Origin: Escherichia virus TH47
DNA length: 64,000 nucleotides
Strand: one strand, 5' to 3'
Sequence record: MT446416.1
Shown: piece by piece, positions 25,311 through 27,808 of the stretch
Layout of the letters: each line of letters starts with the position of its first letter
How positions within the stretch are numbered: position 1 is the stretch's first letter
Program-made: the position numbers and the translations under genes
Notes under the pieces: generated by a model
What the model was told of the DNA's origin: nothing
Databases searched by the model: none
What the model saw: the letters and a program-made list of their open reading frames with translations, nothing else

Positions 25311-25342
25311 TTGTATTTCCTCGTTTAGTTAAGATAAAAGAA

Positions 25343-25360
25343 GGATACCATGTGGTATCC
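25343..25360 (-). promoter_or_regulatory. intercistronic hairpin (possible attenuator) between ATPase and VWA genes
   Basis: Palindrome ggatacca/tggtatcc followed on the minus strand by tcttttat. Confidence 0.35.
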
Positions 25361-25385
25361 TCCTTGTCAACACTCTTTTTAATTA

Positions 25386-26714
25386 TTAACCAAGAGAGCG
25401 TGCTTTACGTACTAGGTCAGAGTACTTCATAACGAAGTCTTTAAACGCTGGTACATCTTTAATCGTAATCGCTACTTTATGAAGCGTGATGGTACGAATC
25501 GCCAGTACTGCCAGTTCTGCTTGAGTTGCAGAGAAGTTATGGTCTAGGAAGGTGATGAAGTTGTTGCACAGCTTACCCCAATCTTCCACTGGTAGACGTT
25601 GTTCTTGCTTCTCATTGTAGAGGTCGATAATTTTGTAAACCAGATTCAGAGTGATGAAGTAGTTCGCGGAAATATCAAGCGAAGCATCAATCTCTTTAAT
25701 CTCACCCTGTAGGATGGACATGGTATCTGGTAGTTTAGCTACGTTATCAACATACTCGATGTATTCAGTTGCTACGCCTTCACCAACACGACCTGCAATC
25801 ATCGCACGGAACACTTCTTTATCAATGTTCTTAACTTTCTTCAGATCTTCGTAGCGTGCTACTGCTTCCCATGAACGTGGAGAAGTACCACCACAGTGAG
25901 AAGGATCTTGTGGGCTAAGGGTGTTGAAGTGTTTAGCACCAGTGTTGTTGATGAACGCAACAGTTGCTGGGTTCAAACGCTTGCCAATCGCATAATCGTT
26001 AATCCAATCTTGATGATAAGGAATCATTTCGATGTGGGTCATACGGTCACGCAGTGGTGTAGCTAGAGAGAACGTTACACCGCCATCAGTTTCACGGTTA
26101 CCTGCTGCGAGAATCAGTGCAGTCTTAGGTAGCTTCATCTCACCAACACAACGGTCGAGGATTAGCTGGTAAGACGCTGCCTGTACAATCGGCATTGCAG
26201 AGTTGATTTCGTCAAACAGGATAACACCTTTCCAATCATCGGGCAATTTCAGTACTTTTGGTGCTGCCCACACAACTGCTGTTTCAGCGATGTAATCTTG
26301 TGCACTAGCCAGTTCAGATTCAATCAGTTGCTTACCATCCATATCAAGGAACACTTTCTCTGGAACTGGAATACCACGAAGGTCACTTGGTTCAATCTGA
26401 GACAAACGGAAATCGATAAAGTTAGTGTCTTGGTCGATTAGTTTGGCTTCAAACGCTGCCAGTTCACGGCGAAGTTGATCGGCATTTTCAGTATCAGCTT
26501 CGATTTGTTGTTTCATGAACTCAATTTTTGCCACGTTATCTTTACGCAGTGGGTAGTTCTCATCAGCGTATTGACGTGCGATAGCAGATTTACCGATACC
26601 AGGGCTACCCCAAATCATCAGGCTATCTTGAATCATGTCAGCCAGTGCCATTGCTTCTTTAGCTTTCTTAGGAGTCAGTTTTACGTTCAGGATATCGTTG
26701 TTTTGAGTAGACAT
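25386..26714 (-). CDS. MoxR/CbbQ-like AAA+ ATPase
   Basis: Walker A GSPGIGKS, Walker B ILFDEIN, coiled-coil insertion; AAAGGAAAA SD. Confidence 0.75.
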   Translation of the reverse strand: MSTQNNDILNVKLTPKKAKEAMALADMIQDSLMIWGSPGIGKSAIARQYADENYPLRKDNVAKIEFMKQQIEADTENADQLRRELAAFEAKLIDQDTNFIDFRLSQIEPSDLRGIPVPEKVFLDMDGKQLIESELASAQDYIAETAVVWAAPKVLKLPDDWKGVILFDEINSAMPIVQAASYQLILDRCVGEMKLPKTALILAAGNRETDGGVTFSLATPLRDRMTHIEMIPYHQDWINDYAIGKRLNPATVAFINNTGAKHFNTLSPQDPSHCGGTSPRSWEAVARYEDLKKVKNIDKEVFRAMIAGRVGEGVATEYIEYVDNVAKLPDTMSILQGEIKEIDASLDISANYFITLNLVYKIIDLYNEKQEQRLPVEDWGKLCNNFITFLDHNFSATQAELAVLAIRTITLHKVAITIKDVPAFKDFVMKYSDLVRKARSLG

Positions 26715-26754
26715 GTATATTTTCCTTTTGTTGGATAAAATCGTTTAGGTTTCT

Positions 26755-26783
26755 ATTATAGCCAATCCGTGGGCAAAAGTAAA
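26755..26783 (-). promoter_or_regulatory. proximal promoter P3 (TTTACT-N17-TATAAT)
   Basis: Minus-strand TTTACTtttgcccacggattggcTATAAT about 40 nt upstream of the ATPase ATG. Confidence 0.4.
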
Positions 26784-26823
26784 GGAACTGTGTTAAAAGA
26801 ATTTTTAACTTATCAGTTCCTTT
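26781..26823 (-). promoter_or_regulatory. hairpin (possible attenuator/terminator) between P2 and P3
   Basis: Perfect 10-bp inverted repeat aaaggaactg/cagttccttt with 23-nt loop, followed on minus strand by acttttg. Confidence 0.4.
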
Positions 26824-26885
26824 GTTACTTCATGAATCATCCGTGTATTTAAAAAGGCATTTCTCTTTGCCGTCTTGATGTGGTC

Positions 26886-26913
26886 ATTATATCACATCGT
26901 TCAGGCTTGTCAA
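26886..26913 (-). promoter_or_regulatory. promoter P2 (TTGACA-N16-TGaTATAAT) with A-rich UP element
   Basis: Minus-strand aaaaaaaagttgTTGACAagcctgaacgatgtgaTATAAT; part of a ~70-bp direct repeat. Confidence 0.65.
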
Positions 26914-26979
26914 CAACTTTTTTTTATTTCTTTTTCAATCTCACATCTTGTGATTTTGAAAACTTGCTTCGTGGTGGTC

Positions 26980-27007
26980 ATTATATCACATCATTCGGCG
27001 TTGTCAA
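26980..27007 (-). promoter_or_regulatory. promoter P1 (TTGACA-N16-TGaTATAAT) with A-rich UP element
   Basis: Minus-strand aaaaaaaaagatgTTGACAacgccgaatgatgtgaTATAAT; second copy of the repeat. Confidence 0.65.
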
Positions 27008-27034
27008 CATCTTTTTTTTTCTTTATTTTCGAAG

Positions 27035-27412
27035 CTACATGTGCATCGAAATTAACATTCTAAAATCATCACCACACAATGTTAACTCTGTAACTATCAT
27101 TGCGTCAGAGAGGTATATGTACTGCCCTTCAACATAGTAGGGTGAAGTACATATCCTATCAAGCGATGTAAAGATTATAGAACTTTTGAACTCTCTTTGC
27201 AAGGGGATTTTTGTAAATTCGTAAAGAATGTTTTCTTTACAAATTGTATATCCAAACTTGCTAAGTCTTAAACCACCGCCAGTTCTGAAATTTTCAAAAA
27301 TTGACATCAGAAGCATACGGTCTGTTAATTCAGCGTCTGATCCATGTACTTCTCTAACTTTTAAAAGTACATCGTTTTGAAATTCAGTACTGTTGTGTGG
27401 TTCAGGGATCAT
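27035..27412 (-). CDS. hypothetical protein
   Basis: 125-aa ORF, last gene of a long minus-strand operon. Confidence 0.45.
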   Translation of the reverse strand: MIPEPHNSTEFQNDVLLKVREVHGSDAELTDRMLLMSIFENFRTGGGLRLSKFGYTICKENILYEFTKIPLQREFKSSIIFTSLDRICTSPYYVEGQYIYLSDAMIVTELTLCGDDFRMLISMHM

Positions 27413-27415
27413 ATA

Positions 27416-27808
27416 TTACATCCCCACAAAACCCTGTCTTGCTGCATATGAAGGAGCATCTTTAACTTTATAGTCTTGGACACCATCTTTACCAATTTTC
27501 GGACCCATATCTTTGGTTCCGAAGCAGCAATCAGTGGATTCATCAACTTCTTCAGTACTTTCATCATTATATCGAACATCCGATAAAATGTCACACGCTT
27601 TTTGAAGCTTTTCTACGATTTCTTTTTGATCTTCACCTGATTTAACCTTATCCACAATGTGGATAAGGCATTCGGTGATATCTTTAAGTAAATCGGTGGC
27701 TACAGCATCAGAAGGAGTCTCAACTGCAAAACTTTCTTCTTCAGTAGATTCTTCACTAGAAGTGATTTCATCTAATGCTTCAACCAATTCACGATAATTA
27801 TATCCCAT
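27416..27808 (-). CDS. acidic hypothetical protein
   Basis: 130-aa ORF with AGGGGA SD. Confidence 0.45.
   Translation of the reverse strand: MGYNYRELVEALDEITSSEESTEEESFAVETPSDAVATDLLKDITECLIHIVDKVKSGEDQKEIVEKLQKACDILSDVRYNDESTEEVDESTDCCFGTKDMGPKIGKDGVQDYKVKDAPSYAARQGFVGM

Follow-up and report, generated by a model that had tools for sequence, protein, structure and literature searches.

A 320-bp gap between genes (positions 26715-27034) in a 64,000-nucleotide stretch of Escherichia virus TH47 (MT446416.1; herein the window) holds tandem consensus promoter sequences followed by a conserved, covarying hairpin that resembles an intrinsic terminator; behind them lies the gene of a MoxR/N4 gp24-like AAA+ ATPase. 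We propose that early sigma-70 promoters feed this leader terminator, with read-through to the ATPase gene, and from the sequence and its comparison across the Rak2 clade of phages we put the probability of this reading at about 55%. The arrangement probably throttles the ATPase gene or makes a short RNA. The window phage, a jumbo myophage that infects E. coli, belongs to the genus Asteriusvirus (121Q/PBECO4/BF17 group) and has a genome of ~350-380 kb; at this locus it shares ~99% identity with BF17 and WPEC3/5, ~84% with 121Q, PBECO4 and G17, and ~74% with the Klebsiella phages RaK2 and K64-1. The genes around the gap lie on the minus strand, and promoters, hairpins and motifs are given in window positions with the minus strand as gene sense. 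The elements of the leader, from the distal promoter toward the gene, are as follows:

27008-27032, minus: A-rich UP-like tract of P1 (TCGAAAATAAAGAAAAAAAAAGATG), read from the sequence
26980-27007, minus: promoter P1, TTGACA-16-TGaTATAAT, 12/12, predicted start near 26973
26932-26962, minus: HP1, an imperfect hairpin at +11 to +41 of the P1 transcript, overlapping the distal UP region of P2
26914-26936, minus: A-rich UP-like tract of P2, read from the sequence
26886-26913, minus: promoter P2, TTGACA-16-TGaTATAAT, 12/12, predicted start near 26879
26839-26844, minus: GGA-1, an ACGGAU motif (ACACGGAUGA) 5' of the terminator, single-stranded in the predicted fold
26781-26823, minus: leader terminator hairpin, lower stem AAAGGAACUG/CAGUUCCUUU, upper stem GUUAAAA/UUUUAAC, folding free energy (dG) -13.1
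26774-26780, minus: U-rich tail ACUUUUG, predicted 3' ends of short RNAs
26761-26774, minus: HP3, a short stem-loop, GCCC-ACGGAU-UGGC, whose ANGGAN loop is conserved
26755-26783, minus: promoter P3, TTTACT-17-TATAAT, 10/12, its -35 overlapping the terminator tail
26723-26727, minus: Shine-Dalgarno sequence AAGGA of the ATPase gene, read from the sequence

Tandem consensus promoters in the ATPase leader

Two near-identical units, each with an A-tract, TTGACA, a 16-nt spacer and TGaTATAAT, had been noted in an earlier reading of the same DNA (herein the original prediction), and their coordinates hold on the minus strand. Both hexamers of P1 and of P2 are exact consensus, with a TG at -15/-14 (extended -10). 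The proximal subsite of the UP element has the consensus AAAAAARNR, and the -46 to -38 stretches of P1 (AAAAAAAGA) and P2 (AAAAAAAGT) both fit it. The pattern TTGACA-N13-TGn-TATAAT has three exact matches in the window, all on the gene-sense strand; at no more than one mismatch, 0.13 matches are expected, and none of 100 shuffled windows reached three. The promoter matches of P1 and P2 are thus far beyond chance, and initiation by the E. coli sigma-70 holoenzyme is predicted near 26973 and 26879. The third match (3439-3412, minus) lies in a divergent intergenic region, ~35 nt 5' of a gene for a 762-aa Clp-like ATP-dependent protease ATPase; it has TTGACAA...GAATGTGATATAATG in common with P1 and P2 and is followed by no leader terminator.

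The duplicated unit, previously put at ~70 bp, measures 57 nt (26880-26936 against 26974-27030; 84% identity) and recurs with a 94-bp period; judging from this repeat, P1 and P2 arose by tandem duplication. P1 and P2 are both present in all E. coli relatives. Phage SP27 (L006) carries three tandem promoters, at 391, 486 and 580, spaced 94-95 bp apart; its additional promoter is the product of a duplication of ~95 bp that took in P2 and 45 nt of leader, and the junctions fall inside A-runs. P1 is kept in Asteriusvirus and in RaK2/Muenster, and the A-tract is also found 5' of the RaK2 orthologue, while the P2 position in RaK2 and Muenster has decayed to TTGAAT-17-CATAAT. Two copies in the E. coli relatives, three in SP27 and a decayed P2 in RaK2 and Muenster point to a copy number that is still changing at this site.

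A weaker promoter closer to the gene had also been claimed. P3 does offer a 10/12 match there; as a TATAAT promoter, however, it is confined to Asteriusvirus: in RaK2 the -10 reads TATCAT, and the remaining lineages have no more than a loose TAnnAY element there. HP1 is likewise kept within Asteriusvirus only and is absent from RaK2, shows no clear compensatory changes, and could stabilize the 5' end of P1 transcripts. Most lineages, whatever their promoter class, have a semi-conserved U(U/C)AAGA 7-10 nt past the -10 (leaders L013-L037; window 26872-26879). A 30-aa coding sequence annotated in WPEC3 (window 26887-26979, minus; L002 3088-3180) starts within the P1 -10 and covers P2; it is almost certainly spurious.

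A covarying terminator-like hairpin after the promoters

The original prediction placed a perfect 10-bp hairpin with a U-rich tract after it between P2 and P3, and this is borne out (arms 26823-26814 and 26790-26781). The lower stem has 4 G-C pairs among its 10 bp, and the 23-nt "loop" itself folds into a 7-bp upper stem, GTTAAAA/TTTTAAC in the DNA. With the UUU of the stem base the tail reads UUUACUUUU, and the terminator tail UUACUUUUG has U at 6/9 positions. The segment TCCTTTACTTTTGC is invariant across Asteriusvirus and RaK2, and a U-rich tail is present in every other lineage too. The dG and tail are typical of the phage's other terminators and fall within their range; ARNOLD had annotated the orthologous hairpin as a terminator in phage G17. 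The 261-nt leader as a whole folds better than all 200 of 200 shuffled sequences (z = -3.5). An Rfam scan of 26300-27500 at E <= 1 returned only the snoRNA sR52, whose 18.8 bits (E = 0.33) fall short of the gathering score, 50.

The ATPase served as the query for relatives among viral and metagenome contigs, and their ATPase identities run from 49% to 93%. Every Rak2-clade locus has a hairpin with a U-rich tail 30-65 nt after the promoter -10, and its arms change together: GGAACUG/CAGUUCC, GGCACUGA/UCAGUGCC, GACACUG/CAGUGUC, AGCACUGA/UCAGUGCU, GCACAGC/GCUGUGC and GGCUCC/GGAGCC. In a MAFFT alignment 87.5% of terminator-helix cells pair, with both-side changes in 7/11 pairs; for the terminator and HP3 helices jointly 85.5% of cells pair, against 19-51% with slid partners. 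Another count of the terminator stem gives 89% of cells paired, the slid controls again giving 19-51%. The eight core terminator pairs are paired in 22/22 distinct sequences of a model-based alignment; such an alignment leans toward structure, and the MAFFT result is concordant. RaK2 loci fall below the strict covariance-model threshold, so that RaK2 was compared by eye and in alignment A3 only. The hairpin is, on this evidence, a conserved and covarying element of intrinsic-terminator type, at which transcript 3' ends are predicted. The element is absent from the leaders of ~30%-identity ATPases in other phage groups.

Processing offers another use for such a helix. T7 has an RNase III site, R0.3, downstream of its tandem A1-A3 promoters, and the hairpin could be an RNase III-type processing or stability element that gives one 5' end and is no terminator. 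The Asteriusvirus helix can indeed be extended to ~21 bp (AAGUAA/UUACUU plus both stems, interrupted by a bulge and an internal loop). The CBB/GAP32-like homologue, however, is a textbook terminator (10-11-bp stem, tetraloop, clean U-tract CUUUUUU) and too short for RNase III, and what is conserved clade-wide is the short stem with the U-tract. We regard this explanation as very improbable. Still harder to credit is a transcription-dependent origin primed by the tandem promoters, of the kind known from T7 phi1.1A/B and T4 oriF, for which we see next to no likelihood: it draws only on tandem promoters in an AT-rich region, whereas the gene strand does not switch at the locus, the conserved features are covarying RNA helices and a terminator, and in distant relatives a lone promoter of a different class stands there.

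Sequence conservation follows the same elements. Identity to the 121Q type is 96% over 26750-26848, which takes in GGA-1, the terminator, HP3 and the -10 of P3, and 94% over the final 36 nt before the ATPase ATG; it is 59-77% at third codon positions of the five flanking genes and only 66% in the P1 unit outside its hexamers. By these identities constraint is stronger on the leader than on the flanking coding sequence.

The order of promoter and terminator was assessed in a complete, unannotated relative of 351,992 bp (OR844650.1). A collection-wide scan for TTGACA-N10-ATGTGATATAAT had unrelated phages among the matches listed and gave no census, and the complete relative was used instead. It contains 25 TTGACA-class sites that have TG and match at 11/12 or better, just 3 of them perfectly, and the ATPase leader is the sole tandem TTGACA pair. 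A covariance model of the leader finds one match in this genome at 73 bits, the next being at 33 bits or less; in the window the values are 74.7 and 32 bits, and the weaker matches are generic terminators. The leader module is single-copy in the complete 352-kb relative. Among its 37 strong promoters of two classes, only for the leader's two does a terminator-like hairpin come ahead of the first open reading frame; elsewhere in the window phage, terminators precede or overlap promoters, for instance near 23.9 kb, 25.3 kb and 39.2 kb. All Rak2-clade loci keep one order, from promoter through terminator and HP3 to the ATPase, despite three -35 classes. An order that is unique to the locus and kept across the clade argues that the encounter of transcript and terminator is functional.

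At 48669-48616 of the window (minus), a promoter-like TTGACT-17-TATAAT sequence (11/12) abuts the 5' arm of a strong terminator (AGGGACAGA...UCUGUCCCU), and transcripts from it would lack the full hairpin. In OR844650.1 (L229-L236), TTGACA-class promoters cluster at ~289,600-318,600, with AGTACTG just 5' of the -10 and -35; two of them lie on the opposite strand, where a rule-based scan found no open reading frame start within 600 nt downstream. The cluster, which falls outside the window, is probably the main early region. Most related promoters of the complete relative lie there, at 289-318 kb; the P1/P2 pair stands instead at the boundary of virion and DNA-metabolism genes.

The promoter class at the orthologous site has itself been replaced. 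It is TTGACA in Asteriusvirus and RaK2, GGGACA-17-TGTGATATAAT in the ~75% tier of relatives, and (G/A)TGAAACG...TGGTATAAT (the GTGAAACG -35 class) in CBB/GAP32-like phages. Reading TTTTGCTTA of RaK2 and of locus L013 as a MotA box was rejected: other lineages do not conserve the motif, and it lies 9-10 nt from the -10, the T4 spacing being ~12 nt. The CBB-like GTGAAACG class matches the "divergent RpoD-like" TGAAACG class, which is tied to DNA-synthesis genes in CBB (PMC5259590). GGGACA-16-TATAAT is a genuine second promoter class of the window phage, with three exact sites in the window against 0.54 expected (23853-23826, 44862-44835 and 57642-57615, all minus) and 12 in the complete relative, all on one strand, among them a tandem pair 76 bp apart; the 23.8-kb site lies directly past the terminator of the VWA gene. 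These phages encode an RpoD-like sigma factor of their own, which may read the GGGACA class. The arrangement of promoter and terminator has thus outlived changes in what is likely the temporal or holoenzyme class of the promoter.

Read-through, insulation or a short RNA

The comparison of sequences shows the elements directly, together with their conservation, covariation and uniqueness; promoter activity, termination, its efficiency and any regulation we infer. In the mechanism that we propose, host RNA polymerase, still unmodified, would transcribe from P1 and P2 early in infection, and the transcripts would meet the intrinsic terminator in the leader, where most would end, ~107 nt long if begun at P2 and ~201 nt long if begun at P1. 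These predicted lengths agree with the short RNAs of ~100-200 nt that the original prediction had expected, and its suggestion that the hairpin attenuates the operon or stops P1 and P2 transcripts gains support, at the level of sequence, from the covariation and the unique order. The read-through fraction would carry HP3 with its GGA loop and express the ATPase; its share may shift with the infection stage or with a factor acting at the two ANGGAN sites. The leader terminator would also stop co-directional transcription arriving from the upstream virion genes and so insulate the ATPase gene, and P3, or the loose -10-like element of other lineages, would be the entry point past it.

Several observations weigh against this mechanism. 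The U-tract is interrupted (UUUACUUUUG) and the Asteriusvirus hairpin is long and two-tiered, so termination efficiency could be low; P3 and translation signals alone could account for the constraint 3' of the terminator; with an RpoD-like sigma factor encoded by the phage, either a host or a phage holoenzyme may read P1 and P2; and no competing antiterminator helix is conserved among the leaders compared. Nor is there a conserved leader peptide: an 11-codon open reading frame running into the hairpin (MIHEVTKELIS) is not conserved outside the genus, nor is the ATG within the AUGGAU motifs, where ACG, AAG and AUG alternate between lineages. The leader is therefore not a classical attenuator, and control, if there is any, would have to come from a protein factor or from stage-specific changes of the polymerase.

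The surroundings of the gap bear on what the hairpin is for. On its 5' side lie the block of virion structural genes and a conserved 125-aa open reading frame without an assigned function; on its 3' side the ATPase is followed by a DUF2201 VWA/metallopeptidase protein and, further 3', by an unassigned protein, a DprA-like protein and thymidylate synthase. The gap is thus the boundary between late-type virion genes and non-late (ATPase/DNA-metabolism) genes, all co-directional. Features on the 3' side are:

25386-26714, minus: MoxR/N4 gp24-like AAA+ ATPase gene
25338-25365, minus: terminator-like hairpin separating the ATPase gene from the VWA gene; TTGACA-17-TATCCT overlaps it in the usual order

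At the second of these (window 25338-25370, minus), an A-tract and a TTGACA-17-TATCCT promoter with TG overlap a hairpin of 12-13 bp. Transcripts from this promoter would start past the hairpin, so the "ATPase-VWA operon" of the original prediction, taken as one unit, is probably two units split by the terminator-like hairpin at 25365-25338.

Seen from this boundary, the leader hairpin might be merely the terminator or insulator of the late virion block, with P1 and P2 ordinary promoters that are mostly read through and an order of no regulatory meaning. The position between structural and DNA-metabolism genes that all run in one direction suits such a role, as does the interrupted U-tract; in CBB-like phages the upstream stop codon falls inside the -35, leaving no space for a terminator ahead of the promoter. 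On the other hand, terminators elsewhere in the phage do precede or overlap promoters, and the reversed order, unique among the 37 promoters, is kept at 49-93% ATPase identity through class turnover. The constraint on the leader exceeds that on coding sequence, and the CBB-like terminator is canonical in stem, loop and U-tract. We think it rather unlikely that insulation is the whole explanation.

The sequence around the terminator contains a second conserved signal. ANGGAN is found on both sides of the terminator in 20/22 distinct clade sequences, the downstream copy 10-13 nt after it in 20/22 sequences. The arms of HP3 vary and stay complementary (GCUUAU/AUAAGC, CUCAA/UUGAG, UCAAAU/AUUUGA, UCAGAU/AUCUGA). 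A DNA palindrome or operator was considered for HP3 and rejected: variable arms around a conserved centre are the opposite of an operator, and we read HP3 as RNA. Neither the conserved GGA motifs nor HP3 had been noticed in the original prediction.

These motifs also fit a short terminated RNA that is itself the functional product, made in large amounts and acting in trans (by binding CsrA/RsmA or Hfq, or by base-pairing); this is the alternative we take most seriously, though we hold it to be unlikely. Such an RNA would measure ~60 nt in CBB-like phages; in the window phage its length would be ~105 or ~200 nt. The layout of a promoter, 25-95 nt and a terminator, with a U-tail typical of small RNAs, would suit it; the ANGGAN is conserved in the single-stranded 5' part in 20/22 sequences, and duplication or triplication of the promoter would lift the RNA dosage. 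However, the stretch from HP3 to the ATG (94-96%) is as conserved as that 5' of the terminator, with just 84% past the P2 start; each RNA would expose one GGA site, against many in CsrB-type sponges; and the module is always linked to the ATPase, though the loci were fetched via the ATPase.

A more specific link to the host can be drawn from the same motifs. RsmE binds hcnA at the hexaloop ACGGAU, and the Csr/Rsm consensus is ANGGAX displayed in a hairpin loop (PMC4005645). The HP3 loop, a putative CsrA site, is identical to this hexaloop and sits on a short covarying stem, and a third GGA lies in the Shine-Dalgarno AAGGA, 43 nt after HP3. The hosts of the clade are all Enterobacterales, carriers of CsrA/RsmA. 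The Shine-Dalgarno GGA is, however, absent from CBB-like leaders, and a GGAG Shine-Dalgarno commonly follows terminators in the window phage, so the resemblance may be partly generic. That host CsrA/RsmA reads the leader RNA at two ANGGAX sites on either side of the terminator and sets termination, translation or both for the ATPase block, or that an abundant short RNA made from the two strongest promoters titrates CsrA, we regard as doubtful. If true, it would couple early or middle phage expression to the physiological state of the host, and would be an undescribed form of phage-host regulation conserved in phages of E. coli, Klebsiella, Cronobacter and Pectobacterium.

Relation to known systems and meaning for Rak2-like phages

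Strong host-type promoters in series are known from the early regions of T7 (A1/A2/A3), T5, T4 and LUZ7, and those of T4 have UP-like A-tracts and extended -10 elements. All these lead straight into genes, in T7 with an RNase III site and not a terminator; P1 and P2 differ in the conserved terminator after them, in their mid-genome position and in lying at a boundary of late and non-late genes. In lambda PR'-tR', a terminator lies within ~200 nt of a strong promoter and yields 6S RNA unless the polymerase is modified by Q; the likeness is one of layout only, the genes downstream of the present leader not being late. In LUZ7 the two strongest early start sites are in tandem, and terminator efficiency changes with time (PMC9163698).

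The closest characterized layout is greA/GraL. About two-thirds of the transcripts from its two promoters stop at an intrinsic terminator in the 5' untranslated region, and the sequence 5' of the terminator matters (PMC6829880). The two systems share two promoters, a leader terminator, short RNAs and a remainder of transcripts that express the gene. GraL differs in its RNAs of 37-59 nt, its host gene, its overlapping promoters (94 bp apart here), the lack of GGA hairpins and its regulator, GreA.

Within the clade, Buttimer et al. (2017, PMC5259590) predicted RpoD-like promoters with a UP-like element in CBB and suggested that early genes are expressed from them. These Rak2-like promoters of CBB and GAP32 likewise have sigma-70 hexamers after an A-rich UP-like tract; that study differs in giving a motif list for one genome, without tandem copies, a leader terminator or class replacement at an orthologous site. 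The Asteriusvirus literature examined contains no promoter analysis. Leader terminators, tandem early promoters and UP-like sigma-70 promoters in this clade are thus kinds already known; the literature searched holds no description of a clade-wide, single-copy covarying module, the reversed order, promoter-class swaps or the GGA hairpin.

The leader holds the best sigma-70 promoters of the genome, which are candidate strong parts for expression constructs. Rak2-like jumbo phages (121Q, PBECO4, RaK2, GAP32, CBB) are under development for therapy, and the locus is a compact entry to their transcription. Swaps of the -35 class at one site may reveal which holoenzyme, with host sigma-70 or with the phage RpoD-like sigma factor, reads which class. 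Should the promoters simply be read through, the leader would be ordinary phage gene organization; if termination is regulated, it would define the timing of the ATPase/DNA-metabolism block beside the late virion genes.

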